Part shown: in pieces, positions 2,366 through 59,536 of the stretch
Layout of the letters: every line of letters begins with the position of its first letter
Position numbering within the stretch: position 1 is the first letter of the stretch
DNA from: Spirochaetales bacterium Spiro_10
GTDB taxonomy: Bacteria; Spirochaetota; Spirochaetia; Treponematales; Treponemataceae
DNA: 64,000 bases
Assembly: GCA_001604405.1 (NCBI GenBank)
Contig: LVBL01000017.1
Location: 3,364 to 67,363 of the forward strand
Direction of reading: 5' to 3'
The notes under the pieces: model-generated
Database searches by the model: none
What the model saw: only the letters and a program-made list of their open reading frames with translations
What the model was told of the DNA's origin: nothing
Translations under genes and position numbers: made by a program

Positions 2366-2548
2366 ACCGCACCTCCTCTACTCCGGACTTACTATCACCG
2401 ACACAATAATACGGCCGAAAACGGGCCTGAACAATCGCCCGATTGTTAGAATTTCATGAGTTATACGCAGGAGGATTTTGCCTGAAGGCGTGATATCATG
2501 AGTATGGCGACCCGGTCACCAAATCACGTTTCAAAAAGGAAGGGAACC

Positions 2549-5970: not shown

Positions 5971-7223
5971 ACGATATCGCGCGGCGGCACCGCGACGGAA
6001 AAATAATGGCGACGATATTCGTCGCGGCGACCGGGTTCGCCATCCTGTGCCTCGCCATACTCATCGTATCGGTCCTGGACCAGACCGCCGGCTACGTGCT
6101 CGTAGAGTACGAAACCCTTCCCGAGTACGTCCTTCCGTCGGTAGACGGCGGCGAACCCACCGGGGACCCGGCAACGACGGCGAAACTCGATTCGCTCGAC
6201 TCGGCCGCGCTCGTCTCGGTGCTGGAGGAAAACGTCAGTTCCCGGCGGCTCAAGGCGCTCGACATCGAGCGGCCGCTCGCCGAACGCGGGCGAAACGGCC
6301 TTGCCGCCCTCGTCCTCGCGGAGGTCCTCGAGCCGACAGTCGTCCGAAGCTGGTCCTTTTTCGATTCGATGACCAAGCGAAGCAAGATATTCGAGTGGGT
6401 CGAGGAGAACGGAGAGGGCGGAAACCTCTCCTTCAGGTACTGGATGAACCCCTCTTTTCTCGGCGCTTCCCAGTCGTCGAACGCCCTCTTTGCCGGCATC
6501 CGGAGCGCGATTCTCGGATCCCTCATGACGATAGTCCTGACCATAGTCGTCGCCTTCCCGATCGCACTGGGGGCGGCCGTGTATCTCGAGGAATACGCCA
6601 AGGACAACCTGTTCAACCGGATAATCAAGACGAACATCTACAACCTTGCCGGAGTCCCGTCCATCATCTACGGAATGCTCGGGCTCGGCATCTTCGTGCG
6701 CGTCCTCTCGCCCCTCACCTCCGGCGCGATATTCGGGGTGACGGGAGGCAATTCCTCGGGCGACGGCCGCACGGTCCTCTCCGCCGCGCTCACGCTCGCG
6801 CTTCTGCTGCTGCCGACCATCATCATCAACGCCGAGGAGGCCATACGGGCGGTGCCCCGCACCCTCCGGGAATCCGGCTACGCCTTGGGCGCCACGAGAT
6901 GGCAGGTGGTCGCGCACCACGTGCTCCCGGCATCGATGGACCGCATCCTGACCGGAACGGTTCTCGCCGTCTCGCGCGGCATCGGAGAAACGGCGCCGCT
7001 CGTGCTCGTCGGCGCCGCGACCTTCCTCACGAAGGACCCGACCGGCGCCTTTTCCCGTTTCACCACGCTTCCGATACAGATATACCAGTGGACGGCGCGG
7101 CCCCAGGCGGAATTCAGGAATCTCGCCGCGGCGGCCATCGTCATCCTCCTGCTTCTCTCGTTATCGATCAACGCCACGGCCATTGCGCTCCGCAACAAGT
7201 TGCGCGCGGAGAAGAGGGGGTAA
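5967..7223 (+). CDS. pstA: phosphate ABC transporter permease PstA (long periplasmic insert)
   Basis: Start ATG at 5967 overlaps the pstC stop (ATGA). Sequence MNDIARRHRDGKIMATIFVAATGF..., with C-terminal ESGYALGATRWQ and GIGETAPL motifs. Confidence 0.9.
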   Translation: MNDIARRHRDGKIMATIFVAATGFAILCLAILIVSVLDQTAGYVLVEYETLPEYVLPSVDGGEPTGDPATTAKLDSLDSAALVSVLEENVSSRRLKALDIERPLAERGRNGLAALVLAEVLEPTVVRSWSFFDSMTKRSKIFEWVEENGEGGNLSFRYWMNPSFLGASQSSNALFAGIRSAILGSLMTIVLTIVVAFPIALGAAVYLEEYAKDNLFNRIIKTNIYNLAGVPSIIYGMLGLGIFVRVLSPLTSGAIFGVTGGNSSGDGRTVLSAALTLALLLLPTIIINAEEAIRAVPRTLRESGYALGATRWQVVAHHVLPASMDRILTGTVLAVSRGIGETAPLVLVGAATFLTKDPTGAFSRFTTLPIQIYQWTARPQAEFRNLAAAAIVILLLLSLSINATAIALRNKLRAEKRG

Positions 7224-27907: not shown

Positions 27908-28849
27908 GTGGCGGTTGACTGCGGCGACGACAAGGGAAAACACGTGCGCAAGGCGGCGGTCATCGCGATCGCCGGAAACTTCGCCCTCGCGGCGGCGAAG
28001 ATCACGATCGGCCTTTTGGCCGGCAGCCTCGCGGTGCTCGGCGACGGAATCGACTCCTCGACCGACGTCGTGATCGCCGCGATGTCTCTCGTCGTCGCCT
28101 CGGTCATCAGCCAGCCGTCCGACAAGGAACACCCCTGGGGTCACGGACGGGCCGAGACGGTCGCCACGGTACTGATCGCCTTCATCATCCTTCTCGCGGG
28201 CTTTCAGCTGTCCGCCTCGGCGGTGGCGCGCCTTACCTCGGGCGCGGCCCTCGTGCCACCGTCCGCGGCCGCCCTCTGGGTAACCTCGCTTTCGATTCTC
28301 GGCAAGGCAGGACTCGCCGCGAGCCAGTACCGGATCGCGAGAAAATCGGGAAGCGCCATCGTGCTCGCGAACGCCAAGAACATGGCGAGCGACATCGTCA
28401 TATCGTCGTCCGTGCTCGCGGGGCTCGCCGCGTCCATCGCGTTCTCCCTGCCCGTGCTCGATACCGTCATCGCCCTGCTCGTCGGCATATGGGTCATGAA
28501 AACGGCGCTCGGAATCTTTCTCGAGCAGAACATGGAGCTGATGGACGGGACGACGGACGAAGGCCTGTACCGGGCGCTCTTCGACGCGGTTCGCTCGGTT
28601 CCCGGCGCGGGCAACCCCCACAAGGCGCGAATCAGGAAGATGGCCTCGAGCTGGGACATCGATCTCGACATAGAAGTCGACGGCGACCTGACGGTTCGCG
28701 AGGCGCACGACATAGCGGAAGGGGTCGAGCGCGCGGTCAAGTGCCAGATCGCCGACGTGTACGATATCATGGTGCACGTGGAGCCGGAGGGTTCCGTCAG
28801 GCACGGCGAGCAGTTCGGGCTGTCGGCGTCAGACGTCGAGGAGCGCTGA
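27908..28849 (+). CDS. cation diffusion facilitator family transporter
   Basis: GTG start. AIAGNFALAAAKITIGLLAGSLAVLGDGIDSSTDV..., with a C-terminal cytoplasmic domain. Confidence 0.88.
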   Translation: MAVDCGDDKGKHVRKAAVIAIAGNFALAAAKITIGLLAGSLAVLGDGIDSSTDVVIAAMSLVVASVISQPSDKEHPWGHGRAETVATVLIAFIILLAGFQLSASAVARLTSGAALVPPSAAALWVTSLSILGKAGLAASQYRIARKSGSAIVLANAKNMASDIVISSSVLAGLAASIAFSLPVLDTVIALLVGIWVMKTALGIFLEQNMELMDGTTDEGLYRALFDAVRSVPGAGNPHKARIRKMASSWDIDLDIEVDGDLTVREAHDIAEGVERAVKCQIADVYDIMVHVEPEGSVRHGEQFGLSASDVEER

Positions 28850-28879
28850 GGGCGGGATTCCTTCGGAGCGTGAACGCGG

Positions 28880-29695
28880 CTATCGGCGCTTCCAGGCGTC
28901 CACGAACTCGATCATGTATTGCTGGACGTCGCCGAACCATTCCCGCTGCAGGGCGGCGGCCTCGACGCCGACGTAGCGGTAGTGCCAGCTTTCCCAGCGA
29001 AACCCGGTAACGGCCTCATATCCGTCGGGAAAGGAAAGCGACCAACCGAACTTGTACGCGTTCTCCGCGAGCCACTTCCCGGCTTTCGTCCCGGCGAAGG
29101 CGTCGGTTATCGAGCCGAAGTCCGCCGCGGCGCCCAGCTGGTGCTGGCTCGCCCCCGGCATGGCCGACTCCCTGTCGGCCGCCTCGCGGCCGAGCTCGCG
29201 GACGTTTCTCTCGTATACCTTTTTCTGATACTCCCAGGAGCGATACGTCGAGCTGACGACGAGGGTGACGCCGTCCGCGCGCGCGGCCGCGGCCATCCGC
29301 TCGAGGGCGGCCTCCGCCTCCCGCCTCAGCGACAGGCCCTCCCTGCCGGGAACGTATGACCGCCCGGCGCCGACGGGCACGAGGTCGGCCGGGACGTAGT
29401 CGGCGGGAAGGAGGCGCTTCTTGTCGACGAGCGCGAGAAACCCGCCGGAGTCGGCGGCTATCACGCGTTCGAGGGCCGGAACGAAGGACTCGCGCCCGTC
29501 ATTCAGGGCGCGCGTGATCTCGGCCGGTATGACGGCCGGCGCCAGGAAGGTTTCGCTCCGGTCCGCCGGGGCTGCAGGGGCTGCCGGGGCGGGAGCCGCC
29601 GCGGACGGCGTCGGGGCGGGAGTCGCGTCGCGTTGGGCGAAGCACGCCGACAGGGAAAGCGCGCCGAAGGCGAGCAGGAAGGTCCGTCTTTTCAT
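28880..29695 (-). CDS. VanY/M15B-family D-alanyl-D-alanine carboxypeptidase, lipoprotein
   Basis: Lipobox MKRRTFLLAFGALSLSAC. SSTYRSWEYQ, SQHQLGAAADF and ESWHYRYVG motifs. Start overlaps the upstream gene stop by 4 nt. Confidence 0.85.
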   Translation of the reverse strand: MKRRTFLLAFGALSLSACFAQRDATPAPTPSAAAPAPAAPAAPADRSETFLAPAVIPAEITRALNDGRESFVPALERVIAADSGGFLALVDKKRLLPADYVPADLVPVGAGRSYVPGREGLSLRREAEAALERMAAAARADGVTLVVSSTYRSWEYQKKVYERNVRELGREAADRESAMPGASQHQLGAAADFGSITDAFAGTKAGKWLAENAYKFGWSLSFPDGYEAVTGFRWESWHYRYVGVEAAALQREWFGDVQQYMIEFVDAWKRR

Positions 29696-30357
29696 GAGAA
29701 ATCCTTTATGGTCCACCCGCGGCGCCGGGCGACGGCCCTGAGCCTGAAATCGGGATTTGCCGCGACGGGGCGCCCGATGATCTCGAGCAGGGGCAGGTCA
29801 TGCACGCTGTCCGAATAGAACGAACAGAGGCGGATGTCGACGCCGCTTCTGGAAAGAAAATCCCGGATGATCCGCCCCTTGAAACGGGAGAACACCGGAG
29901 CGCCGACAAGCTTGCCTTCGAAAACGCCGTCGGCGTACGAGAACTGCGTGGCGATGACGTCGGAGGGACTGAATCCGCAATGCCGCGCGAGCGGATACAC
30001 GGCCTCGAAAGGCGCCGAGGTCGCCATGATGACCCGGATGCCCTCGCTCCGCAATTGCTCGATCTCGCGCATCGCGCCGGGATAGATCCTTTTTTTGAGC
30101 CACTTCTCGAAGGCCGCGTCCGCTATGTCCTCGAGCGTCGCGCGGGATATCCCCCTCAGCTTCGGAAGGCTCACGCGGAACAGGCGCTCGACGCTGACGT
30201 TGGAGAGGCGGTAGAGCACGTACAGGACGGGGGCGGCCGCGAGATACCACCAGGCGATAATCCCGCGGCGGACGCATTCCAGCATGAAGAAGAGGCTCGT
30301 CGATACGCGCGAGATGGTGTGATCAACGTCGAAAAAGGCTATCGCCTCGCGTCTCAT
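29692..30357 (-). CDS. HAD-IB (SerB-like) hydrolase
   Basis: Start at MRREAIAFFDVDHTIS (DxDxT). ...IMATSAP..., ...YSDSVHDLPLL. Begins 2 nt after the kinase stop. Confidence 0.75.
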   Translation of the reverse strand: MRREAIAFFDVDHTISRVSTSLFFMLECVRRGIIAWWYLAAAPVLYVLYRLSNVSVERLFRVSLPKLRGISRATLEDIADAAFEKWLKKRIYPGAMREIEQLRSEGIRVIMATSAPFEAVYPLARHCGFSPSDVIATQFSYADGVFEGKLVGAPVFSRFKGRIIRDFLSRSGVDIRLCSFYSDSVHDLPLLEIIGRPVAANPDFRLRAVARRRGWTIKDFS

Positions 30358-30359
30358 GC

Positions 30360-30776
30360 TCACAGGATAATGCGAATGGAGCCCTTGAACAAGCCCTTTT
30401 TGTACGTCACGTTCCGGGCGATGTTGCGGCACATCAACAGGCCGAGGCCGCGGTATCTTCGGGAACCGCGGTCGTAGTACGGCCTCGCGGAACCGTGCGC
30501 CTCCACCATGCGGCCGAAGGTTTCCGAACGGTAGGAAATCAGTATCCTCACCTGACCCGCGTCGCCGCGCGCGCGGCCGCGCGATATCCTGACCGACACG
30601 AGTGAGCCGGGCGGGCACTTCCCGTGCATGACGATGTTGTCGAAGTATTCGGTTACGACGATAAGAGCGCGGTTCCTCTCTCCTCCTTCCAGCAACGGAC
30701 AGGACAGGACGAACCGCTCGAGGGCATCAAGGCTGGCGAAGTCCGGCGCGACGCGCGCTCGACAGGGCCGAGGCAT
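30360..30776 (-). CDS. RsbW/SpoIIAB-like anti-sigma-type serine kinase (HATPase_c_2-like)
   Basis: 138 aa. N-box-like TEYFDNIVMHG and G2-like YRGLGLLMCRNIA. The expected DxGxG (G1) position reads ISYRSETFG. Confidence 0.6.
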   Translation of the reverse strand: MPRPCRARVAPDFASLDALERFVLSCPLLEGGERNRALIVVTEYFDNIVMHGKCPPGSLVSVRISRGRARGDAGQVRILISYRSETFGRMVEAHGSARPYYDRGSRRYRGLGLLMCRNIARNVTYKKGLFKGSIRIIL

Positions 30777-30782
30777 GCGGGT

Positions 30783-31109
30783 TTATACGACTTCGGTAAG
30801 CGAGTAAATGACGGTAAACATCTCGTTGAAGCCCGTGGACTCGATCGCGAGACGCACCACCTCGGAAGGCTTCATCACGTAGAGTTTGTTGCCGACCGAC
30901 TCGCCGTCGTCGAGGGCCGCCATCAGGACGCCGAGACCGGAGGAAGAAAGGTTCACGACGCGCGAAAGGTCCAGTACGAGGTTCGTCTCCTTGATTAACG
31001 AGTAGACCTTCTCCTGGAATTCCGTGTAGGTGTAGGAGTTGATCGTTCCGGACACCTCGAGGAGCGCGTAGTTGGGGCCGCTCTTTTCGACGATCGATAT
31101 GCTTTCCAT
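30783..31109 (-). CDS. STAS-domain anti-anti-sigma-type protein
   Basis: 108 aa. LDLSRVVNLSSSGLGVLMAAL carries the conserved phosphorylatable Ser context (DLS...SSGLG). Confidence 0.8.
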   Translation of the reverse strand: MESISIVEKSGPNYALLEVSGTINSYTYTEFQEKVYSLIKETNLVLDLSRVVNLSSSGLGVLMAALDDGESVGNKLYVMKPSEVVRLAIESTGFNEMFTVIYSLTEVV

Positions 31110-31121
31110 GAAATCTTCCCC

Positions 31122-33257
31122 TTATTTGCCCAGATATTTTACGACGAGCACCGTTATGTCGTCTTCAAGCTCGCGCGAGACGAACTCCCCGAGGTTGTCG
31201 CACAGGAATTTCGCCATGCGCGACGCCGGGTACGAGCGGTTGTCCATCAGATGCCGCTGTACGCGGTCCTTGCCGAACCGCTCCCCGCGGAGGTTCGTTG
31301 CGTCAATGAGTCCGTCTGTCGTCATGAGGAGGATGTCCTGCGGGTTCAGCGCGATCTTTTTCACCTTGAGATACTTGCCGACGTCGCGCACGAAGCCGAG
31401 CACGCGCCCGTCGCCCTGGATCTCTATCGCGTTGTTGTACGCCGCCGTATAGAGGAACATCGCGGGGACGCCGCAGTTGAGGTAATACATGACGTTGGAA
31501 GAGAAATCGAGGAGGCCGAACACGCCGGCGAAGAAGGTTCCCTTGGGAAGGTTGTTCTTGATGAAAAGGTTGACCTTGACGACGAGCTGCTTGAAGTCCT
31601 TCGTCTCGGTCAGGAAGGTCCGGAGAACCGACTTGAGGATGACCATGGACATGCTCGCGTTCAGGCCCTTGCCCGAAACGTCGCCCATGACGTACAGGTA
31701 TTTGTCCTCGCCGAGCTTGATGAAGTCGATGAAGTCGCCGCCGAGCTTTCTCGCGGAACGCGTGATGAAGTCGACGTCGATCTTCTCGTGCTCGATCCGG
31801 TCGATGTTCTCCTGTATTGAGGTGATTATCTGTCCCGAGAACTCGATCTCCCGGTCGACCGTAAGCACGACCGACTCGTTCGCGATGTTCTTCAGGTAGT
31901 ACATGACGAGGAAGAAGTTGGAGTACAGCTTCGAGAGAACGGTGTAGTCGTAGTCGGTGAAGTCGGCGCCGCGCTTCTTCGCCCCGAGCAGGATGATGCC
32001 GACGACGCGGTGGCCTTCCCGAAGGAGGATGAACGCGTCCGAGTGGCCGATGTCGAAGATCTTGAGGAGGTTCGCCTTCACGTCCGCGTAAATGTGGTTC
32101 GTGATTGCCTGGGTCTTGAGCACGATTGACTCGCTGTGCCCGAGGAGGAAATCGATCGCCTTGTTCTCGGCGATGACAAGCTCGTTCTTCGCTCCCAGCG
32201 AGGAGAACACGGTAACGAGCTTTCCCTTGTCGTCGGAAACCATGATCTCCACGGAGGAGCACTCGACGTACTGCTCGAGCAGCGTGACGGTTTTCTGGAT
32301 GACGACGTCGCCCCCCGAGGCGTAATCGATGGAATCCAGCCCGGCCTCGAGTTCCGTCTCGTAGTCGCTTCCGACCCGCACGTAGCGCCGCAGGCGCTTC
32401 CGCGCGATCTCGCGAAGGAAAAGCATGGCGACCGCGAGAAGGACCAGCGAGGCGACGAGCAGGGGCCGCGACTTGACGACGGCGATAAGCGCCGCGGCCG
32501 CGAAACCCGTTGCCATGCTGAACACGAGGTTGAGGACGGTGAAGTTGATGGCGGTCGCCGTAGCGAGGGCGCGGTCGAAGAGGGTCGTGACCGATTCCGA
32601 CTGGTAAACCATGACGAGCATGACCGCGAGCCCGAACGGCACGAGCGGCAGGGCCCAGACGTACGCAAGGGAGAGGGTGTACAGGGCGTAGGAAACGGCG
32701 AGACCGGAACACACCGACACCGCGACGAAGACGAGACGTTGCCGGAAGATGCGGCTCCGTATGCCCACCGCGCGGGAAAGGAGCGTCAGGACGGTAAGCC
32801 CCGGCAGGCCGAGCACGAACACGGCCGCATACAGGAAGAGACCGTCGCCGAGCGCGTAAAAATCGGTTGACGTTATGAAATAGCGCCCGTCGACGGTCCC
32901 GAGCGTCACGCCCTCGATCGACACGAACGAAAGATAGGCCGCGAACAGAACAAGAAGGACGCCGAAGAACCTCGCGAGCGAGTGCTTGGCGAAATACGGC
33001 ACGGTAAGGGAGTAGCGGAAGAGCGCCACCGACGACATAGAGAAGGCGATGAGGCACAGCCTGAACGAAAGGAGGCTGAGCGTGGGGTTCCTCGTGTACA
33101 GGAGCGTCGCGGAGACGCCCGCGAAGAAGGCGGTAAACGCTGACGTCATCGAGAGCGCCGTCAGCAGGTTGTTCTGCTTCTCGGACCGCGAGTCGAGGTA
33201 GTACGAGAAGGCGAACAGGAAGGCCGCAAGGATATAGCTGAAAATGAGCATGCTCAT
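31122..33257 (-). CDS. membrane PP2C (SpoIIE/RsbU-family) phosphatase with multi-TM N-terminus and GAF-like middle region
   Basis: 711 aa, about 8 predicted TM segments. C-terminal motifs YVMGDVSGKGLNASMSM and LLMTTDGLIDA. Confidence 0.8.
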   Translation of the reverse strand: MSMLIFSYILAAFLFAFSYYLDSRSEKQNNLLTALSMTSAFTAFFAGVSATLLYTRNPTLSLLSFRLCLIAFSMSSVALFRYSLTVPYFAKHSLARFFGVLLVLFAAYLSFVSIEGVTLGTVDGRYFITSTDFYALGDGLFLYAAVFVLGLPGLTVLTLLSRAVGIRSRIFRQRLVFVAVSVCSGLAVSYALYTLSLAYVWALPLVPFGLAVMLVMVYQSESVTTLFDRALATATAINFTVLNLVFSMATGFAAAALIAVVKSRPLLVASLVLLAVAMLFLREIARKRLRRYVRVGSDYETELEAGLDSIDYASGGDVVIQKTVTLLEQYVECSSVEIMVSDDKGKLVTVFSSLGAKNELVIAENKAIDFLLGHSESIVLKTQAITNHIYADVKANLLKIFDIGHSDAFILLREGHRVVGIILLGAKKRGADFTDYDYTVLSKLYSNFFLVMYYLKNIANESVVLTVDREIEFSGQIITSIQENIDRIEHEKIDVDFITRSARKLGGDFIDFIKLGEDKYLYVMGDVSGKGLNASMSMVILKSVLRTFLTETKDFKQLVVKVNLFIKNNLPKGTFFAGVFGLLDFSSNVMYYLNCGVPAMFLYTAAYNNAIEIQGDGRVLGFVRDVGKYLKVKKIALNPQDILLMTTDGLIDATNLRGERFGKDRVQRHLMDNRSYPASRMAKFLCDNLGEFVSRELEDDITVLVVKYLGK

Positions 33258-33259
33258 GA

Positions 33260-34642
33260 TTACTCCTCGATCTTTGCGACGAGCATCGTCACGTCGTCGC
33301 GAAGTTTCTTGTCGCCGTTATACTCAAGGACCAGGTCCGCGATGTCGCCGATAAAATGCTTGGCGCTCTTGTGCGCGCTGTTCTTCACGGTATTCATGTA
33401 CAGTTCGGTGTCCCCGAGTTCGACGCCCGTCTCGTCCATGACCTCCGACACGCCGTCCGAGGCCATGAGCACCACGTCGCCGCGGTACAGGGGCGCTTCC
33501 TCCTGCGTTATGTCGTCGAGGTCGATGATGCCGACGAGACTGCAGTTCGACTGGAGCGGCTTGATCTTGTAACCGCCGGGCGCGCGGGTGATGATGATGG
33601 GATCGGCCATGGAGGCGTTTACGTAGCGGATCTTCATCACCTTCGTGTCGACGATTCCTATGAACAGGACGGCGTACTTGTCCTGGAGACGCATCGACTT
33701 GATAGCGGTGTCGATCGCCCGTACGACTCCGGGAAGGTCTTCCTTGTTCTCGATGATCTTGACCGTGTTCATGATGACGCCCATGATGAGCGCCGAGGCG
33801 AGACCCTTGCCGGAAACGTCGCCGAGAAGGAAGAACGTCCGGTGCTCGTCGAGCGGTATGACGTCGTAGAAGTCGCCCGAGACGTTGACGAGCGGCCTGA
33901 AATACGCGGCGATGTCGAGCTTCGGTATCTCCGGCATCTTCTGGGGCAAGAAGGAAACCTGCGTCTCAGCGACCATGTCCCATTCCTTCGAAAGTTCGGA
34001 TATGGCGGTGAGCTGGGTAATAGTCTTGGTGCGTTTCTGGAAGTTCGCGAATTCGTACAGCATGTTCTGGAACACGCTCTTCTCGAATACCTTCATGTAC
34101 CTGCACAGGACGTAGAAGTGCAACTTCTCGTATACGAGGAAAAAACCGCGCGCGCGCGAAAAGTCGGACACGAGGCCGAGCTCCTCGTCGATGAGGTAGA
34201 ATCCCTCGGGCCAGGTGTCCGAGAAGTTCCGTGAAAGGACCTCCAGGGTCTCGGGATCGGTGGCAACCCGCGTGGGGCTGTTGTACACGACGTAGGAATT
34301 CTCCGCGTTGACGTACAGGACCGAGCAGTCGGCCTCGTGCTCGAGAACGGTCTGCACGGCGTCGATCAGGTCTTCCACCGTGTACGAAAACCTGAGCCGG
34401 TCGGTGAAATTGACCATGAGCCGGCTGTCGCGGACCTTGAAGGCGCGAAACTCGAGCCTGCCCCACACCTCGCGGGTCACGAGCGACGAGGAGGTCGCCG
34501 CCACGAAAAACATGATGGCGGCCGTGATCATGCGCCCGCCGAACGCGAATTGCGGGATTATTATGAACATGAAAAAGGAAAACACGAGCCCGACACCGGT
34601 ATCGATAGCCAGTTTCGCGAGTCGCTTTCTGGATTGAATCAT
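33260..34642 (-). CDS. membrane PP2C (SpoIIE-family) phosphatase
   Basis: 460 aa, two N-terminal TM segments and an unassigned middle domain. FLLGDVSGKGLASALIMG and VLMASDGVSE motifs. Confidence 0.8.
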   Translation of the reverse strand: MIQSRKRLAKLAIDTGVGLVFSFFMFIIIPQFAFGGRMITAAIMFFVAATSSSLVTREVWGRLEFRAFKVRDSRLMVNFTDRLRFSYTVEDLIDAVQTVLEHEADCSVLYVNAENSYVVYNSPTRVATDPETLEVLSRNFSDTWPEGFYLIDEELGLVSDFSRARGFFLVYEKLHFYVLCRYMKVFEKSVFQNMLYEFANFQKRTKTITQLTAISELSKEWDMVAETQVSFLPQKMPEIPKLDIAAYFRPLVNVSGDFYDVIPLDEHRTFFLLGDVSGKGLASALIMGVIMNTVKIIENKEDLPGVVRAIDTAIKSMRLQDKYAVLFIGIVDTKVMKIRYVNASMADPIIITRAPGGYKIKPLQSNCSLVGIIDLDDITQEEAPLYRGDVVLMASDGVSEVMDETGVELGDTELYMNTVKNSAHKSAKHFIGDIADLVLEYNGDKKLRDDVTMLVAKIEE

Positions 34643-34784
34643 CCTGCTGCACCTCTTCGGAGAATCAAATTAATCACACCTCGGGAAAAACCCGCCGGGT
34701 CCGTCCCGACACGCGCCTGAAGGCTCGTGTCCAGCACTAAATTGTACCACATTTGGAGAGATTTGGGGTAAGAAAACGAATGGC

Positions 34785-35927
34785 CTAGCCCTGGAGGTCG
34801 GCGAGTGGCACGGGATTCGGGTTCGCGTTCTCGCCCTCGAGGCGGGAAACCTCCTCAAGGAGGCTTTTTGCCTTGGCGGAGAGCTTCGTGGGAACCTGGA
34901 CGAGCAGTTTGATATAGAGGTCGCCCTTCTTCCCGTTCGCCACCGGAACGCCCTCGTCCCGGACCCGAAGAAGCTTCCCGCTTTGCGCGCCCGAGGGGAT
35001 CTTGATCCTCAGCTGTTTCTCGTCGAGGGAGGTTACGGTAATCTCCGCGCCGAGCGCGGCCTGGGTGATGGATATGGGGATCGCGCAATACAGGTCCGCG
35101 CCGGCGCGCTCGAACCAGGGGTGGCCCTTGACGCGCAGGAATACCACGAGGTCCCCGTACGGGCCGCCGTTGGGGCCGGCGTCGCCCTGCCTCGGGATGG
35201 TTATGCGTTTTCCGTCCTCGACGCCCGCGGGTATCGTGACGAGAATCTTCTGCCTCTTCTTCTGCACGCCCGACCCCCCGCACTCGCGGCAGGGATTCTC
35301 GATGATCGTGCCCTCGCCGTGGCAGGAGGGACACGGCGACGCGATGGAAAAGAAGCCGGAACTGTGGCGTACCTGACCCGCGCCCTGGCATGTCGGGCAC
35401 GTCTTGCGTCCCGAACCGCCCGAGGCCCCGGAACCCTTGCACGCGGCGCAGGATTCGTTTCTGGAATACTGGACTTCCGACTTGGAGCCGTACACGGCGT
35501 CCTTGAAATTGATCTGAAGGTCGTACCGGAGGCTCGCGCCCTGCGCCGGGCCGCCGCGGCCGCCGGACCTGCGCCGCGATCCGCCGCCTCCTCCGCCGAA
35601 GAGATTCTCGAATATGCCGGAGAAATCGCCGAAGATGTCCTCAAAGCCCTGGAAGGCGCTCGGATCGAAGCCGCCCGGACCGCCGGGTCCGCCCATGCCC
35701 TCGAGGCCCGCATGGCCGTACTGATCGTAAATCTGGCGCTTCTGGTCGTCCGAAAGGACCTCGTAGGCCTCGGTCGCTTCCTTGAATTTTTCCTCGGCCG
35801 CGTGATCCCCGGGATTCTTGTCCGGATGGTATTGTATCGCGAGTTTTCGGTAGCCCTTTTTGATGTCGTCTTTCGACGCGTTTTTCTGAACGCCGAGAAC
35901 TTCGTAATAATCTCTTTTCGCTGCCAC
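34785..35927 (-). CDS. dnaJ: molecular chaperone DnaJ
   Basis: J-domain DYYEVLGV...[11 protein letters not shown] region, four CxxCxGxG zinc motifs. Confidence 0.97.
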
Positions 35928-35962
35928 GGGGAACTCCAGACACTTGGGGATATGCCGAACTA

Positions 35963-36038
35963 TACGCTAAAAAATCCGGAACGTCGAGAACGCCGGGGAC
36001 CGAAGTCCCCGCATGCGCGTTCCCCGCCCCGGATTTTT
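35963..36038 (-). terminator. long imperfect hairpin with flanking T/A runs between dnaK and dnaJ (partial terminator or processing site)
   Basis: AAAAATCCGG...GAACGC-C-GGGGAC-CGAA-GTCCCC...GCGTTC...CCGGATTTTT. On the coding (minus) strand the stem is followed by TTTTTT. Confidence 0.5.
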
Positions 36039-36059
36039 GCGTCGGTCGTCCGGCGTTGA

Positions 36060-38015
36060 TTACTTCTTGTCGTCGTCGTTCACGACCTCGTAGTCGACGT
36101 CGTCGGCCGAACCCTTGTTCGGGCCGCTCGCGCCCGCGCCGGCAAAGCCGCCCGCGTTCGCGCCGCCCATATCGGGGCCCGCTCCCGCGGAGGCGTCGCC
36201 GCCTTGCTGGGCGCCCTGCTGCTTGTACATCTCCTCGGCGATCTTGTACGAGGCCTGCTTGAGTTCCTCGGTCTTTGCCCTGATCTGGGCGACGTCGCCC
36301 GACTCGAGCTCCTTCCTGAGGGCCGCGACGGCCGACTCGATGTTCTGCTTGTCGGACGCGCCCACCTTGTCGCCCATGTCCTTGAGCGCCTTTTCGGTCG
36401 AGTAGATCATGGAGTCGGCCTCGTTCCGGGCCTCTACCTTCTCGCGCTCGGCCTTGTCGGCGGCCGCGTTCGCCTCGGCTTCCTTGACCATGCGGTCTAT
36501 CTCGCTCTCGGATAGCCCCGAGGAGCTCTCGATGCGGATCTTCTGTTCCTTGCCGGTGCCGAGGTCCTTGGCCGCGACGTGCACGATGCCGTTCGCGTCG
36601 ATGTCGAAGGTTACCTCGATCTGGGGCACGCCGCGCGGCGCGGGGGGAATGCCGACGAGGTCGAACTTCCCGAGGGTCCGGTTCTGTCCAGCCATCTCGC
36701 GCTCTCCCTGGAGAACGTGGATCGACACGGCGGTCTGGCCGTCCGCGGCCGTGGAGAACACCTGGCTCTTGCGGGTCGGGATGGTCGTATTGCGGTTGAT
36801 GAGGCGCGTGAACACGCCGCCCATCGTCTCGATACCGAGCGAGAGCGGGGTAACGTCGAGAAGGAGCACGTCCTTGACGTCGCCGCCGAGGATTCCGCCC
36901 TGGATGGCCGCGCCCACGGCAACGGCCTCGTCGGGGTTGACGCCCTTCGATCCTTCCTTGCCGAAGAGCTCCTTGACGATCTGCAACACCTTGGGCATGC
37001 GGGTCGAGCCGCCGACGAGGAGCACCTCGTCGATCTGGTCGACGGTGATCCCGGCGTCCTTGACCGCCTTGCGGCACGGTTCCTTGGTGCGCTCGAAGAG
37101 GTCGTCGGTCATCTGCTCGAACTTGGCGCGCGAAAGGCTCTTCTGGAGATGCTTGGGTCCGGAGGCGTCAGCGGTGATGAACGGGAGGTTGATCTCGGCA
37201 TTCGCGACGGCGGAAAGCTCGATCTTCGCCTTCTCGGCGGCCTCGCGGAGGCGCTGGAGGGCCATGCGGTCCTGGGAAAGGTCGATGCCGGTGTCGCCCT
37301 TGAATTCGTCGACGAGCCAGTTCATGATGCGCCTGTCCCAGTCGTCGCCTCCGAGGTGGGTGTCGCCGTTGGTCGACTTGACCTCGAAGACGCCGTCTCC
37401 GAGCTCGAGTATCGAGATATCGAAGGTACCGCCGCCGAGGTCGTACACGGCGATGGTCTTTTCCTTCTTGGAGTCCTTGTTGAAACCGAAGGCGAGCGAG
37501 GCCGCGGTCGGCTCGTTGATGATGCGCTTCACCTCGAGGCCGGCGATCTTGCCGGCGTCCTTGGTGGCCTGCCTCTGGGCGTCGTTGAAGTACGCGGGCA
37601 CGGTGATGACGGCCTCGGTGACCTCCTCGCCGAGGTAGTCCTCCGCGGTCTTCTTCATTTTCTGGAGGATGAAGGCGCTGATCTCCTGGGCGGAATAGAG
37701 CTTGCCGTCGATGTCCACGCGGACGTCGTCTCCCTGCGGGACGACCTTGTAGGGCACGAGCTTCGCCTCGCCGGTGAGCTCCCCGTAGCGGTGACCGATA
37801 AACCGCTTGATCGAGTAGACGGTCTTGTCGGGGTTGGTGATCATCTGGTTCTTGGCGGGCTGGCCGACGACGCGCTCGCCCTTGGCGGTGAATCCCACGA
37901 TTGACGGGGTGGTCCGTCCGCCTTCCGCGTTCTGGATTACGACGGGTTCCCCGCCTTCCATGACCGCGACGCACGAATTAGTCGTTCCAAGGTCGATTCC
38001 GATTATTTTTCCCAT
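36060..38015 (-). CDS. dnaK: molecular chaperone DnaK
   Basis: [22 protein letters not shown]...[12 protein letters not shown]..., 651 aa. Confidence 0.98.
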
Positions 38016-38040
38016 AGTATCAAGTCTCCTTTATCGTCTG

Positions 38041-38727
38041 TCACTGCCCGTTCGCGGCAGGGGTATGCACCATAACCTTCGAGTGCCGGATGATCCGGTC
38101 ACGAAGCTTGTAGCCCTTCACGTACTCCTCGGCTACGGTCGCCTCGGTCACGTCGGGCGAGGGGGCGGTCGCTATCGCCTCGTGGAAGTTCGGGTCGAAG
38201 GCCGCTCCCTTGGCCGGATAATACGTCAGCGAATACTTGCTCTCGAGCATGCTCGCCATCTGGTTTCGTATCATGACGACGCCGTTGGCCAAGGCCGCCG
38301 CGGGAGACCCCTCCTCGTGCGCGCCGCCGGCGTCGATCGCCCGGTCAAAATCGTCCAAAACCTGGACGAGATCCGCCAAAAGGGAGGCATTGGCGTAGTC
38401 TATCGCCTCCTGCTTCTCGCGAATCATCCGCTTGCGGTAATTGTCAAAATCCGCGGCCTTTCGGAGATACTGGTCCTGAAGGTCCGCGTTAAGCCGTTCC
38501 AGCTCGGAAATCCGGTCGGACATGCTGGCCATTCCCGGTTCGGAGGCGGTGTCCTTGCCCGGTTCCGCGGCGGTTTTTCCCTCTTCCGCTCCCTGTTTCC
38601 CCGAATCGGCCGCCGAGGCCGTCCGTTCCGCCGCGTCCTGGGCGGTTTCTTTCCCGGAATCCGATCCCGAAGTAGTCGAATCCGATGCCGCTTCGTGTTG
38701 TGATTCCTGTTCGGCGTGCTTTTTCAT
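38041..38727 (-). CDS. grpE: nucleotide exchange factor GrpE
   Basis: Acidic and Ser-rich N-terminus, then LQDQYLRKAADFDNYRKR..., C-terminal GYKLRDRIIRHSKVMV. Confidence 0.92.
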   Translation of the reverse strand: MKKHAEQESQHEAASDSTTSGSDSGKETAQDAAERTASAADSGKQGAEEGKTAAEPGKDTASEPGMASMSDRISELERLNADLQDQYLRKAADFDNYRKRMIREKQEAIDYANASLLADLVQVLDDFDRAIDAGGAHEEGSPAAALANGVVMIRNQMASMLESKYSLTYYPAKGAAFDPNFHEAIATAPSPDVTEATVAEEYVKGYKLRDRIIRHSKVMVHTPAANGQ

Positions 38728-38792
38728 CGTTTATCCTCAAAAAAAAGATACTGATTTGGCCTACCGGCGGTCAACTGAAAAACCGATCCGGT

Positions 38793-39611
38793 TCATTTCG
38801 CGTCGTTGGCGCCAAAAATGAGGTTCCAGGCGACCGTCCCCGGCCGCGGAACGTTTGGCAGCGCGTCACGGGGAAACCACCGGGCTTCCAGGATCTCGAC
38901 CGGATCCACCCGGATCTCGCCCGAGTCCCAGTCCGCCCGGAAGGCGACCATCAACTGGTCGGGATACGGCCACCCCTGGCTTCCCGCGTACCGGACGTTT
39001 TTCACGCGAAGCGAGGTTTCTTCATATACTTCGCGCGCGACGCATTCCTCGAGGGTTTCACCGTGCTCGACGTAGCCCGCGATGCAGGAAAAGACGTCCT
39101 GGTTCCGGTCCGTATGGCGGGCCAGCAGCAGCTCGTCACCCTTCGTCACGAGCACGATGACGCAGGGCGATATCCGCGGGTATACGGAAACCCCGCACGC
39201 GCCGCACGTTCTGGCGCAGTCGGTTGTATGGTCCGAAAGCGGCCCCCCGCACCTGCCGCAAAACCGCGTCGCGGAGTGCCAGTTGACGAGACCGAGCGCG
39301 CGCGTCGCGGGCGCGGCAAGCCGTCGAAGCGCGGGGTCGTCGGAGGCGAGGATCTCGCGGAGCCGCATCCACGTTCCGCGGCCCCCGGCGTTGACCGGGA
39401 TTTCGCCGCTCACCGAGGCCGAAACGACCGAGGAGACGGGCGCGGAGCCCTCAAGCAGGACCACCCGGGCATTCTCGTCCGCCAGGCGCGCGTCGAGGGT
39501 ATCAAGAACCGTCGAGCCCGGGATTTCGGGAAATTGCCGGGGCAACGTGGTATCATCAAGGAGAAAGAGCTCTCCCGACCTGAAAACGTAATAGACTTGC
39601 GGGGTTTGCAT
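38793..39611 (-). CDS. nudC: NAD+ diphosphatase (NudC-type NUDIX hydrolase)
   Basis: Zinc ribbon CGRCGG...CGACG. NUDIX box GYVEHGETLEECVAREVYEETSL. SQGWPYP motif. Start at MQTPQVYYVF. Confidence 0.8.
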   Translation of the reverse strand: MQTPQVYYVFRSGELFLLDDTTLPRQFPEIPGSTVLDTLDARLADENARVVLLEGSAPVSSVVSASVSGEIPVNAGGRGTWMRLREILASDDPALRRLAAPATRALGLVNWHSATRFCGRCGGPLSDHTTDCARTCGACGVSVYPRISPCVIVLVTKGDELLLARHTDRNQDVFSCIAGYVEHGETLEECVAREVYEETSLRVKNVRYAGSQGWPYPDQLMVAFRADWDSGEIRVDPVEILEARWFPRDALPNVPRPGTVAWNLIFGANDAK

Positions 39612-55305: not shown

Positions 55306-56364
55306 ATGCTGTATTTGCTCGCGTCATTGCTCCAGCGGTATTTCGGACCGTTTCGCCTTCTGCAATCCTACACAATACTGATTATCGTCTCCCTCTACGC
55401 GGGTTTTTTCCTGACGGTATTCATTCTTCCCGCGGTGTACCGCTTTCTCCCCAAAGACCGCGGCAGGGAGTTTTCGGTAAACGCCGAGGCGGCGGTCGGC
55501 AAGCCCACCGGGGCCGGAGTCGTATTCGTCTCGATCTTCGTCGCCATCTCCTTCCTGTTCGCGCCCGTCAGCCTTCCCCACTCGATCGTCCTCTTCCTTA
55601 CCTGGCTCGTCATGCTCACCGGGTATCTCGACGACCGCTCGACGCATTCCTGGGGCGAGTACCGCAAGGGCGCGATGGATCTCGCCCTCTCGCTCGCCGC
55701 GTCCGTCTCCCTGCTCTACTGCTACTTCGGCGGCGAGGCGAGTTACTGGATACCCTTCGTAAGTTCCGTGATCGCCGTCCACCCCGCCGTCTTCCTCGTC
55801 GTCTCGACGATCGTGATTTGGGTTTCGATCAACACGACGAACTGCACCGACGGCGTCGACGGCCTTTCCGGCACGCTTGCGATGATAGCGCTCGTCTCGC
55901 TCGGGATCATCTTTTATTTCGTCCTCGGCCACAAGAACATAGCCGCGTACCTGCTCGTTCCCCACATGAAGGACGGCGCCCAATGGGCCGTGCTGGTATT
56001 CGCGCTGACGGGCGTGTTGATGGGGTACCTGTGGCACAACGCCTTCCCGAGCAAGGTTCTCATGGGGGACGCGGGCTCGCGCGCCCTCGGCTTCTTTATC
56101 GGGGTGTGCGTGATACTGTCGGGCAACCCCTTCCTGTTGCTCATGACGAGCACGATGATCCTGATCAACGGGGGAACGGGGCTTCTCAAGGTGGCCCTTC
56201 TCCGCTTCTTCAAGATCCGCATCCTTCACAACATCAGGTTTCCCCTGCACGACCACATGCGGAAGACGCGGGCATGGTCGCCCACGCAGATACTCCTCAA
56301 GTACATGATAATGCAGGTGCTTATCACGCTCGCCGTTCTCGGCATGTTCTTCAAGATCCGATAA
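55306..56364 (+). CDS. MraY-like polyprenyl-phosphate phospho-sugar transferase (divergent paralogue)
   Basis: 352 aa, about 10 TM segments. YLDDRS, NCTDGVDGLSG, MGDAGSRALG and FPLHDHMRK parallel the MraY DD, NxTDGxDGLA, GDxGS and HHH motifs. It has KPTGAG where MraY has TPTMGG. Confidence 0.7.
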   Translation: MLYLLASLLQRYFGPFRLLQSYTILIIVSLYAGFFLTVFILPAVYRFLPKDRGREFSVNAEAAVGKPTGAGVVFVSIFVAISFLFAPVSLPHSIVLFLTWLVMLTGYLDDRSTHSWGEYRKGAMDLALSLAASVSLLYCYFGGEASYWIPFVSSVIAVHPAVFLVVSTIVIWVSINTTNCTDGVDGLSGTLAMIALVSLGIIFYFVLGHKNIAAYLLVPHMKDGAQWAVLVFALTGVLMGYLWHNAFPSKVLMGDAGSRALGFFIGVCVILSGNPFLLLMTSTMILINGGTGLLKVALLRFFKIRILHNIRFPLHDHMRKTRAWSPTQILLKYMIMQVLITLAVLGMFFKIR

Positions 56365-56393: not shown

Positions 56394-57521
56394 CTACTTT
56401 TTACCGCCAAGTCCCGTGACAAAGCCGGCAAAGGCCGTACCGAACTCCGATCGGATCTTCCGTTCGGCCGCGCGTATCGCGCGGTTGTCGGCCTCGCTCT
56501 GGCTCGTGTGCCCGTCCCTGCCGGACGCGGAGTACGGCAACAGGGCGTTCCCCGTCACCGCGTCCGCGAGGGTCGCGTCAACGGTGTACCGGGAGAATTT
56601 ATTCGGGTTCTCCGGCAGTTCGACCGGGGAAAGCGCGAGCGTGCCGGTCAGCGAGTAGCGGGTACCGGAGCCGCCCGTCATGAAGCCCGCGGAGGTAAGG
56701 ACGGCCGAGAAGGCGGCGGCTATCCGGCCGTCGCGGTCGTTTTTGATGGACACGGCGATCGGGATGCTCTGCGCGATCTTCAACGCCTCGACGCGAAGGT
56801 CCTCGGGGCGCGTCGTCGTTCCGCGCCGCGCCGCCGCCGCGCCTGGGCTGACGACGGAAAGCACGTTGAGGAACCGTCCGCTCGTCTCCGCGATCTCCGC
56901 GGCAAGGTCGTACCGCGCGTAGGCTTCCATGGTATTCCGCTCCGCGGCGGGTATGGCCGTAAGGGAACGGATGGACGACTCGTTGGTCTCTATGAGGTCC
57001 GCGTACAGCATGGCGGCCTTTTGCCGGTCCATGACCGCCACCGCGTAGGTCGTCGAGGAGCGGTCGGACCATACGCCCTTGATCTCCGCGCCGACCACGG
57101 TCTCGAGCGCGTACGAGCTCGTCACCGCGCGCCCGACGTCCGTGCTTTCCGAAACCTCGAGCGCGCCGCTTTTCACGGCCTCGAGGTAGCGAGAACTCAC
57201 GGTGGTCTCCCCCTTGATCGTCTGCCCGAACACGGCGACGAGAGCGCCCATCGCGCTCTTTTCCGCCGCCTCGCGGTTTTCGCCGTACCCGACGGCGGAG
57301 ACGTAGCGTTCCTCGGGGAAGGAAGCCCTCGGGTTCGCGACCCACGCGGGCTCGGGATCGTAGCCTCCCTTGGCGGCCGTGTCGGACGAGCCCTTCCGGG
57401 GGCCCGGAGAAGGCTGATTCGCGGAACCCGTGGCCGAGGACGCCGCGGTCGCGCAGCCTGATATCGATACGCAGAACGCGACGACCGTCGCGAGCAAAAG
57501 CATCCTGGTTATTTTACGCAT
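56394..57521 (-). CDS. LPP20-like lipoprotein
   Basis: Lipobox AFCVSISGC. ...ERYVSAVGYGENREAAEKSAMGALVAVFGQTIKGETTV resembles the LPP20/FlgP-type fold signature. Confidence 0.6.
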   Translation of the reverse strand: MRKITRMLLLATVVAFCVSISGCATAASSATGSANQPSPGPRKGSSDTAAKGGYDPEPAWVANPRASFPEERYVSAVGYGENREAAEKSAMGALVAVFGQTIKGETTVSSRYLEAVKSGALEVSESTDVGRAVTSSYALETVVGAEIKGVWSDRSSTTYAVAVMDRQKAAMLYADLIETNESSIRSLTAIPAAERNTMEAYARYDLAAEIAETSGRFLNVLSVVSPGAAAARRGTTTRPEDLRVEALKIAQSIPIAVSIKNDRDGRIAAAFSAVLTSAGFMTGGSGTRYSLTGTLALSPVELPENPNKFSRYTVDATLADAVTGNALLPYSASGRDGHTSQSEADNRAIRAAERKIRSEFGTAFAGFVTGLGGKK

Positions 57522-58828
57522 ACTGCCTCCGAAAGGCTCAGCCGTCCAGGCTGAACCTCGACGGAATCGAACCTCACGCTCTCGACAAGGCGATTCGCGC
57601 CGTTAAAATACCGTACGGTAAAGGAATACGTCCCGGGTTCCACGGTAAACCCGCCCACGTGCGCCTTTCCCGGAAAATAGCGGGATATCCGCAGATCCGC
57701 CTGCTCGCTCGCCTCGGCGTAAATCTGCGTCCCGAGGCTCAAAAGCCCGAGCAGGAAGGCCCCGTCGGAATCCTTCGTCTTCTTGGCGGATTTTTCCAGG
57801 GCCATCGAGGTAGTCGTCTTGGCGATCGAGCGGACGATCGTCTTGAAATAGATGAACCCGGCCTTCGCCTTGAACGTCTCCGCGGCGACGGCCGCCATGT
57901 CCTCGATCACCTCGAGGTCGAAGCGCCTGCCGTCGTCGAAAAGGACGTCCGCGCGCGCGACGGCGGAGGGGCGCTTGGTCATCACGGGAAGGGCGATCTT
58001 GACCCAGTTGTTTCCCTTCAGGAATATCCGGTCCACCTTCTCGGTCTTGACGGGGCCCTTGCCGCTGAAGGCGATGACGTTGATGCGTCCCATGTCACGC
58101 GGCACGGAAAGTTCCTCGTCGAGCGAGGACGGAACGGGAAAACCGTATACGTTCTTGTGGTTGGCGAACGCGAGCTTGACCTGGTCGCGGTCTATGCGCG
58201 CGTCGTCGTACAGCCCGTCGGCACGGTAGAACAGCATGCCGAGGTAGCGGGCAAGCGCCGAATTGGCGAACTTCGTGGTATGAGCCTCGGCGTCGTAGGG
58301 AACGTCGCGGTTCTTCTCCAGGGCCGCGCGCTGAGCGTTCGACGTCGCGACGCCGTATTTCGCGGAAAGGTACTTGAGCTTGTTGTCGATGCGCCTGATC
58401 TCGACGAGGGCCCCGTCAAGCGAGCCCGCGCGATAGTAATTCAGGGAATTGAAGACGTTCAGGTAGATGTCCTCGTAATCCTCGCCCGGGTATTCCTTCG
58501 TGGAATCGTTGACGAGATACGAGGAGACCTCCTGGGTCACGCTCTTGGTGAACGCCGCCTCGATCCCGCGCTCGGCGTCCCGCAGTCTCTTCGAGGATTC
58601 GGTCAGGTCGCCTGCGTAGTGCGAAAGCATCCCGACGTCGAGATTGAACAAAACCGCGTCCTTGTCCCGATACCCCTTCCCCTTCTGGGCGCGCACCTGT
58701 TTGAGGGCGGCCTGATAGTCGCCCGAGGCGAACGAGGCGTCGGGTCCCTTGCTGTGCTCGACGCTTGCGCAGGACGCGAGCGTCAGGACGCACAGGGCCG
58801 CAAGTACGGCGTAAAACGTTTTGTTCAT
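57509..58828 (-). CDS. large conserved lipoprotein (TPR-like N-terminus; COG3014-like)
   Basis: Lipobox VLTLASC. GDYQAALKQV...YPGEDYEDIYLNVFNSLNYY. 439 aa. Confidence 0.6.
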   Translation of the reverse strand: MNKTFYAVLAALCVLTLASCASVEHSKGPDASFASGDYQAALKQVRAQKGKGYRDKDAVLFNLDVGMLSHYAGDLTESSKRLRDAERGIEAAFTKSVTQEVSSYLVNDSTKEYPGEDYEDIYLNVFNSLNYYRAGSLDGALVEIRRIDNKLKYLSAKYGVATSNAQRAALEKNRDVPYDAEAHTTKFANSALARYLGMLFYRADGLYDDARIDRDQVKLAFANHKNVYGFPVPSSLDEELSVPRDMGRINVIAFSGKGPVKTEKVDRIFLKGNNWVKIALPVMTKRPSAVARADVLFDDGRRFDLEVIEDMAAVAAETFKAKAGFIYFKTIVRSIAKTTTSMALEKSAKKTKDSDGAFLLGLLSLGTQIYAEASEQADLRISRYFPGKAHVGGFTVEPGTYSFTVRYFNGANRLVESVRFDSVEVQPGRLSLSEAVCVK

Positions 58829-58859
58829 CGCTTGCCTGTATTCTCCGGGGCCGATCGCG

Positions 58860-59468: not shown

Positions 59469-59536
59469 CAATTTCCTCCATAAAGAACTATACACTCAGA
59501 TTCGGGTAAAAAACAACATTACCCGACAGGCGAACC

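Follow-up and report, generated by a model that had tools for sequence, protein, structure and literature searches.

A predicted phospho-serine switch operon joined to a VanY-type peptidase gene in Treponemataceae

An operon on the minus strand (34642..28880) of a 64-kb stretch of DNA from a Treponemataceae spirochete encodes two membrane phosphatases of the PPM class (PP2C-A and PP2C-B), a STAS protein with a predicted phosphorylatable serine, a kinase-like protein with an atypical RsbW/SpoIIAB fold, a HAD hydrolase and a VanY-type peptidase. The whole stretch that was analyzed is called the window, and our positions, like those of an earlier note on the same DNA, refer to it. The conserved unit is a four-gene core of PP2C-A, PP2C-B, STAS and VanY, because the order of these genes persisted in 64 of 66 informative loci of relatives while the kinase-like gene and HAD were limited to one clade. 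We consider it probable that the locus is the local version of a phospho-serine switch operon found throughout the Treponemataceae and most likely tied to the state of the cell wall or envelope; an output directed at the envelope is suggested by gene linkage.

A four-gene core and a clade-specific pair

A scan with one genome per species yielded 489 candidate stretches encoding a relative of PP2C-A, of which the best 80 loci were retained for comparison; loci with enough sequence 3' of STAS (n = 66) were treated as informative. Relatives of PP2C-A number in the thousands, and the full-length ones at 50 to 95% identity belonged to the Treponemataceae (e.g., 81% in Treponema zuelzerae and 73% in Brucepastera parasyntrophica). 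Among the 64 loci that kept the core order, STAS directly adjoined VanY, with no gene between them, in 39. The distance from the STAS stop to the VanY start was approximately −14 to +12 nucleotides (nt) in nearly all loci that lacked the kinase-like gene and had cleanly called starts, and two bigger apparent overlaps resembled start-call artefacts. The kinase-like gene was present between STAS and VanY in 25 of the 64 loci, together with HAD in 24, all of these 24 having a PP2C-A at least 63% identical to that of the window. A hidden Markov model (HMM) of the kinase-like family found the protein only in this clade (PP2C-A identity of at least 63%) and in one further locus, L047 (Candidatus Gallitreponema excrementavium). 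There the kinase-like gene (5796-6185) lay between STAS and VanY without HAD, an intermediate arrangement, and its product matched the family HMM at 4e-10 and no Pfam model. Contigs reached by independent protein look-ups had the same six-gene order, and every contig encoding a kinase-like relative showed this order, shortened only by contig ends.

The core was kept while its flanks changed. The upstream neighbor was dnaJ in 56 of 69 loci, and the downstream neighbor (n = 59) was a CDF transporter gene in 27, a beta-eliminating lyase gene in 8 and another gene in 24; loci without dnaKJ were flanked by genes for unrelated transporters, UPF0102 and amylase. The six-gene form was retained in a lineage in which HAD had diverged to 49% identity and the downstream flank was different. 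Because the kinase-like gene and HAD, where present, sit between STAS and VanY with tight or overlapping junctions, the operon structure appears to have been preserved through rearrangement. Two Treponema loci, L088 (13948-15665) and L089, had PP2C-A, PP2C-B and STAS but no VanY after STAS. In L088, STAS was followed by a reverse-strand open reading frame (ORF) without assignment and a gene whose product matched Big_5 weakly. The six-gene block described in the earlier note is not the conserved unit, the kinase-like gene and HAD being confined to one clade (25 of 64 loci). Of the linkage to HAD and VanY, whose conservation in relatives the note had made its own touchstone, the part concerning VanY held across varying flanks, and the part concerning HAD failed outside that clade.

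All six genes were under purifying selection, with dN/dS values of 0.03 to 0.22 against the closest relative. The value was lowest for STAS (0.027); PP2C-A had 0.047, HAD 0.057, VanY 0.093 and the kinase-like gene, which evolved approximately 5 times faster than its neighbors, 0.22. In a relative whose DnaK was 91% identical, STAS was approximately 90 to 92% identical, PP2C-A 88%, HAD 67%, VanY 64% and the kinase-like protein 54%; the last ranged from 45 to 54% where STAS was at approximately 90%. STAS and PP2C-A were thus about as constrained as DnaK, which argues for an important function. The notion that the kinase-like gene is a decaying pseudogene was rejected, since it was intact in 27 loci, had a dN/dS of 0.22 and kept two invariant sequence boxes (N and G2, see below).

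Proteins encoded by the operon

The domains that the earlier note had read from the sequence were checked with HMMs, and PF07228 (twice), PF01740/PF13466, PF13581, PF12710 and PF02557 all matched, PF13581 marginally. STAS matched PF01740 (3.2e-15) and PF13466 (6e-07); with TIGR00377, the anti-sigma-antagonist superfamily, it reached 2.6e-13 and 49.8 bits, just below the cut-off of 53.45. Its S56, which we take to be the counterpart of the phosphorylated serine in SpoIIAA and RsbV, was invariant in 76 orthologues, irrespective of a neighboring kinase-like gene, so that the context of a phosphorylatable serine noticed earlier stands, as does the domain itself. The residue preceding the phospho-serine was Asp (DS[SA]G, the canonical form) in most lineages without the kinase-like gene and Ser (SSSG) in the clade that carries it, as well as in one of the clades that do not. 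A C-terminal S[LV]TEV tail was conserved in all STAS orthologues. In Treponema paraluiscuniculi, a frameshift interrupts TPCCA_0220 (PMC3105029), which carries the annotation of an anti-sigma factor antagonist and may or may not be an orthologue of the STAS gene described here. TP0218-TP0220 of T. pallidum, beside dnaK, may be the corresponding cluster.

Both phosphatases matched PF07228 (PP2C-A, 1.4e-29; PP2C-B, 1.8e-39), and their hydrophobic segments, two at the N terminus of PP2C-A and approximately eight or nine within residues 3-284 of PP2C-B, agree with the earlier description of two membrane SpoIIE/PP2C phosphatases, the larger with about eight transmembrane segments. The GAF-like region ascribed to PP2C-B was weaker than had been claimed (GAF_3 at a subthreshold E of 0.17), its assignment as a membrane phosphatase being upheld. 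With the SpoIIE equivalog TIGR02865, PP2C-A scored 30 bits, in its PP2C domain only, against a cut-off of 490.8, and PP2C-B gave no match. An AlphaFold2 (AF2) model of PP2C-A matched SiaA best, and also RssB, Rv1364c and SpoIIE. The catalytic residues D257, D275, G278-K-G280, D396-G397 and D449-D450 of PP2C-A did not vary across 15 orthologues with identities as low as 54%, and degeneration of PP2C-A was never seen among the orthologues compared. PP2C-B of the window was also catalytically canonical (pattern DDDDDD), and 19 of 75 PP2C-B orthologues had lost one to three catalytic aspartates while keeping their full length. The Asp of GDVSGKG was replaced by A or S in 17 of the 75 (L041, L046, L052, L057, L059, L065-L068, L070-L072, L076, L079, L082, L084 and L089), and the TDG and DD motifs had suffered losses as well. 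Loss of these aspartates at full length suggests a function independent of catalysis, and the degenerate PP2C-B has the look of a pseudophosphatase retained for sensing or as a scaffold. Phosphatases of this PPM class are known to work as dimers; it is therefore reasonable to suppose that PP2C-B may be a sensor partner of PP2C-A.

The kinase-like protein matched PF13581 marginally (1.8e-06, 28.4 bits against a cut-off of 27.4), and a search of Protein Data Bank (PDB) sequences with the profile of its family gave no match even at an E of ≤10; its fold was consequently assigned from an AF2 model (pLDDT 87.5). In Foldseek, the best PDB matches of this model were SpoIIAB, RsbW and an anti-SigF factor (probability 1.0, TM 0.60 to 0.66), and because these three matched best, the assignment of an RsbW/SpoIIAB fold is, as a prediction from a model, sound. 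The N box (E43 and N47) and the G2 box (G110 and G112, in RRYRGLGL) were invariant in the family. The complete ATP-binding set of N box (ExxxN), G1 box (DxGxG) and G2 box (GxG) was not found, as G1 fails. In GHKL proteins the G1 aspartate contacts adenine, and ATP binding by the kinase-like protein is in doubt because this aspartate is absent from the whole family. The protein that the earlier note had called a small RsbW/SpoIIAB-like kinase thus has the fold, and by its G1 box it may not be a kinase. Of 1.84 billion representatives clustered at 50% identity, 83 belonged to this small family; only 12 relatives sharing words with the protein were found among 5.8 billion proteins, and an exact look-up of the window's sequence returned no record.

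HAD matched PF12710 (2.2e-27) and scored above the cut-off of TIGR01490 (112.3 bits versus 98.3), and its motif I (DxDxT) was present as FFDVDHT, in line with the HAD-IB hydrolase named earlier. Its identification as histidinol phosphatase or SerB was rejected (NF052360, 92 versus 280; NF052359, 79 versus 400; SerB, 18.3 versus 144). Orthologues of HAD occurred solely inside this operon, in the clade with the kinase-like gene. More distant paralogues (37 to 47% identity) followed genes for a DAGK-type lipid kinase and a PlsC-like acyltransferase, as in two stretches, L090:4282-6654 and L092:4350-6654, where these two genes and a HAD-IB paralogue (42 to 44% identity) form a conserved trio. The trio in L090, which belongs to the same metagenome-assembled genome as locus L027, was situated among his genes (HisG, IGPD, HisIE and histidinol dehydrogenase). 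Because its paralogues adjoin DAGK and acyltransferase genes, a lipid phosphate or a small molecule is at least as likely a substrate of HAD as a phosphoprotein, as far as gene neighborhoods can tell.

VanY matched PF02557 at 8.5e-38 (129.6 bits against a cut-off of 25). Its N terminus, MKRRTFLLAFGALSLSAC, contains a lipobox, the lipoprotein signal ending in LSAC, and the zinc motifs SxHxxGx[AV]xD and ExWH were the same in every complete orthologue among the 69 aligned, two gapped rows being orthologues truncated by contig ends. These features agree with its earlier classification as a lipoprotein of family M15B. Its scores stayed below the equivalog cut-offs of LdcB (88.8 versus 275) and of resistance VanY (VanY-B/G, 76.6 versus 400).

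Gene layout, transcription and surroundings

The six genes and their signals are listed in Table 1. In the 5'-to-3' direction the intergenic gaps measured 2, 12, 6 and 2 nt, and HAD and VanY overlapped by 4 nt (ATGA), in exact agreement between the predicted ORFs and the layout given by the earlier note. Spacing, domains and fold together support its description as a tightly packed operon with PP2C, STAS and RsbW-fold components. The flanks were likewise as described: grpE-dnaK-dnaJ lay upstream on the same strand, dnaJ being 142 nt away, and a convergent CDF transporter gene lay downstream, its end 30 nt from the VanY stop.

Table 1. Genes of the operon and predicted elements of its leader in the 64-kb window
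Feature	Position	Strand	Description
PP2C-A	34642..33260	-	460 aa; membrane-anchored PPM/SpoIIE-type phosphatase; 2 transmembrane helices, small alpha/beta domain, long helix, PP2C domain
PP2C-B	33257..31122	-	711 aa; polytopic PPM phosphatase, approximately 8 to 9 transmembrane segments, central region without domain assignment
STAS	31109..30783	-	108 aa; single domain, predicted phosphorylatable S56 in ..LSSSGLG..
Kinase-like protein	30776..30360	-	138 aa; atypical RsbW/SpoIIAB fold
HAD	30357..29692	-	221 aa from ATG; HAD-IB hydrolase, TIGR01490 subfamily
VanY	29695..28880	-	271 aa from ATG (MKRRTFLL start); VanY-type M15B zinc peptidase lipoprotein
Extended −10 promoter element (predicted, conserved)	34751..34741	-	TGTGGTACAAT; 3' of the dnaJ stop and T-run; from spacer alignment
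Terminator-like hairpin	34711..34693	-	7 pairs, 5 of them G-C, followed by GGTTTTTCCC; in the leader of approximately 85 nt, 50 nt before the PP2C-A start
Ribosome-binding site	34650..34657	-	AAGAGGTG; before PP2C-A; GAGGT in at least 90% of 26 aligned sequences

Alignment of the dnaJ-to-PP2C-A spacers of 25 close relatives revealed a conserved T-run followed by the motif [TC][GA]TG.TA.A.T. A consensus promoter scan listed no minus-strand sigma-70 promoter; it missed the extended −10 element because it needs a −35 match. Since the conserved T-run and the extended −10 element separate dnaJ from PP2C-A, the operon has its own predicted promoter, and its place beside the chaperone genes is one of adjacency and not of coregulation. 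That the operon is part of a heat-shock operon was rejected on the grounds of this T-run and separate promoter after dnaJ and of the 13 of 69 loci without dnaJ upstream. The terminator-like hairpin in the leader could be a putative attenuator; comparable leader hairpins were present in some relatives and not in all, and the leader was not conserved across the clade. An Rfam scan of positions 28000-39000 at an E of ≤1 returned only a chance snoRNA-like match in dnaK and no riboswitch or leader before PP2C-A.

No sigma-70-family domain was detected among the 50-odd predicted genes of the window, 40 of which lie beyond the surroundings of the operon, or within ±10 kb in two syntenic loci, and phmmer searches of the window ORFs with RpoE and SigB, a soft test since the query sequences were approximate, found nothing. 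The claim that neither the operon nor its flanks encode a sigma factor is thereby supported. The significance attached to this absence did not hold up, as it is not unusual in itself, other targets or targets encoded in trans being known (PMC8256260, PMC13555669). The window contained no second STAS, RsbW-like or PP2C gene, and the loci examined over ±10 kb, together with the gene scans of the window, contained no genes for diguanylate cyclases, glycosyltransferases or type III secretion near the operon. Approximately 25 kb away (56394-59495 on the minus strand and 55306-56364 on the plus strand) lie genes for an LpoB-like lipoprotein (PF13036, 3e-35), an LPP20-domain protein and a family-4 glycosyltransferase of the MraY/WecA type, with no evident link to the operon. 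A 449-amino-acid ankyrin-repeat protein (Ank_2, 1.9e-32), of a kind uncommon in bacteria, is encoded at 2498-3847 on the plus strand.

Possible outputs and comparison with known switches

In the scheme that we favor, a membrane or envelope signal would set the activity of PP2C-A, possibly through a dimer of PP2C-A and PP2C-B, with PP2C-B serving mainly as membrane sensor or regulatory partner. PP2C-A would remove the phosphate from S56 of STAS, and unphosphorylated STAS would bind either the RsbW-fold protein (encoded in cis here; other treponemes encode it elsewhere or lack it) or some different partner; this binding would change the activity of a target encoded elsewhere. VanY would be translationally coupled to the preceding gene and made in fixed proportion with the switch, and it is because of this fixed proportion that the switch most likely reports on, or adjusts, the state of the cell wall or envelope. 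Several observations weigh against this scheme. The linkage of VanY to the operon could be historical, and a cytoplasmic STAS protein and a periplasmic VanY lipoprotein cannot touch each other. The PP2C-A/PP2C-B heterodimer is pure conjecture. At the G1 position, canonical relatives from the margin of the search, included in the alignment, have D[DQ]G..F or xDG; the kinase-like proteins have [YF]x[ST]..F there, and none of them has an Asp. If the protein indeed cannot bind ATP, there would be no source of STAS phosphorylation in cis. Most treponeme loci had no kinase-like gene within ±10 kb, the flank covered by the scan. Finally, in the unrooted comparison, the kinase-like gene and HAD may be a clade-specific insertion or else a unique retention.

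An envelope-tied switch is not the only way to read the locus. It might be a canonical anti-sigma switch in which a sigma factor encoded in trans (e.g., of the sigma-28 or extracytoplasmic function [ECF] type) is held by the RsbW-fold protein, or by an RsbW encoded elsewhere, and is released by dephosphorylated STAS, VanY and HAD being members of the regulon or passengers. Consistent with this, the structures closest to the kinase-like protein are those of anti-sigma factors in complex with partners (SpoIIAB, RsbW and the anti-SigF factor), STAS resembles TIGR00377 albeit below its cut-off, and targets away from the module are known, as with sigma-66 in Chlamydia (PMC8256260). We nevertheless judge it unlikely: a sigma-70-family gene turned up neither in the window nor in the ±10 kb covered in relatives, most treponeme operons lack the RsbW-fold gene and still have STAS and both phosphatases under strong constraint, and the fast evolution of the RsbW-fold protein would be odd for the holder of a conserved sigma factor. 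Alternatively, STAS itself might be the output, as in SypA, SiaC and All4160, its unphosphorylated form binding and controlling a non-sigma effector such as an envelope, polysaccharide or second-messenger enzyme. The RsbW-fold protein would then be a mere STAS kinase or a sequestering pseudokinase, dispensable where another kinase serves. The far stronger constraint on STAS and PP2C-A than on the kinase-like protein, the 39 of 64 loci whose core operon lacks the kinase-like gene, the structural match of PP2C-A to SiaA and the documented cases of envelope enzymes controlled by STAS proteins (PMC13555669, PMC8256260) speak in its favor. The operon encodes no candidate effector besides the periplasmic VanY and the clade-specific HAD, and we regard STAS as the output as possible, though doubtful.

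It is also conceivable, if rather improbable, that the operon is a mosaic in which VanY and HAD are housekeeping passengers sharing a promoter, kept adjacent by operon inertia and overlapping stop and start codons. The restriction of HAD to one clade, the different setting of its paralogues (DAGK, acyltransferase and HAD beside his genes), the two loci with both PP2C genes and STAS but without VanY following (L088 and L089) and the separate compartments of STAS and VanY would all be accounted for. Against it, VanY stays beside STAS in 64 of 66 loci while both flanks are replaced, and where the kinase-like gene and HAD sit between the two, tight or overlapping junctions are kept. A further and more far-reaching picture is that of a family-wide circuit for envelope surveillance. 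In it, a PPM pair, one member catalytic and the other drifting toward a pseudophosphatase sensor, would set the phosphorylation of the nearly invariant STAS, which would act directly on a non-sigma effector. VanY would be the controlled arm or the source of the signal, and the G1-less RsbW-fold protein a pseudokinase adaptor recruited by one clade together with a lipid-type HAD phosphatase. Such a circuit, taken as a whole, seems to us an unlikely one.

Partner switching is a textbook signaling device, and outputs beyond sigma control have been identified for only a few such devices. In this spirochete family, which includes animal-associated Treponema, dozens of genomes keep a switch linked to a peptidoglycan peptidase. 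In most lineages the phosphatases and the phospho-serine are retained with no kinase gene alongside, and the one kinase-like protein that does occur has lost an otherwise universal ATP-binding residue; a comparison of loci with and without the kinase-like gene should reveal the requirements of a working STAS switch. Should STAS phosphorylation prove to be connected with VanY activity, cytoplasmic serine-phosphate signaling would be tied to the trimming of the cell wall, on which shape and motility depend in these bacteria. A literature search found no functional study of this cluster or of partner switching in Treponema.

The individual enzymes have relatives outside signaling operons. VanY resembles VanY/LdcB peptidases (MEROPS M15B) in its Pfam VanY domain and invariant zinc motifs, is here exported as a predicted lipoprotein and, unlike LdcB and resistance VanY, falls below the equivalog cut-offs and is encoded in a signaling operon and not in a van cluster. 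HAD, with its DxDxT motif and a score above the cut-off, is like the TIGR01490 subfamily of HAD-IB, whose relatives include SerB and histidinol phosphatases of the HAD type, and its nearest paralogues are found with DAGK and a PlsC-like acyltransferase and not beside STAS.

As a module, the operon resembles RsbU/RsbP-RsbV-RsbW and SpoIIE-SpoIIAA-SpoIIAB of Bacillus in that a PPM phosphatase, a single-domain STAS protein and a small partner of GHKL fold are encoded side by side. SpoIIAB and RsbW are the best structural matches of the kinase-like protein, and the layout of PP2C-B (many transmembrane segments, a central region and a C-terminal PP2C domain) is that of SpoIIE. Unlike the Bacillus modules, it has no coencoded sigma factor, two tandem membrane phosphatases instead of one, and a kinase-like protein that lacks the G1 aspartate and any sequence match to PDB chains; moreover, most treponeme operons have no kinase-like gene, and a VanY lipoprotein is part of the unit. 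PPM/STAS switches without an adjacent alternative sigma factor have been described as SypE/SypA of Vibrio, BtrU/V/W of Bordetella, RsbU/V/W of Chlamydia, SiaA/B/C/D of Pseudomonas and HenR/All4160 of Anabaena (PMC8256260, PMC13555669), which bears out the earlier statement that outputs other than sigma factors are known. The operon shares their PPM and STAS logic and the absence of an adjacent sigma factor, the output of several of them concerns the envelope or polysaccharide, and the PP2C-A model has its best structural match in SiaA, part of a switch with a diguanylate cyclase as output. In contrast to these systems, no genes for diguanylate cyclases, glycosyltransferases or type III secretion are near the treponeme operon. 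Each of the named switches has an identified kinase, whereas the candidate encoded in cis here is atypical or absent, and we know of none of them described with a linked M15B peptidase or HAD-IB hydrolase. Sigma-less partner switching is therefore already known, and this variant of it is new. What is new is the tandem of two membrane PPM phosphatases, one of them decaying to an apparent pseudophosphatase in some lineages; the union of a PPM/STAS switch with an M15B lipoprotein in one conserved operon; and a kinase-like gene that is confined to some members of the family and encodes a predicted RsbW-fold protein without the G1 aspartate.

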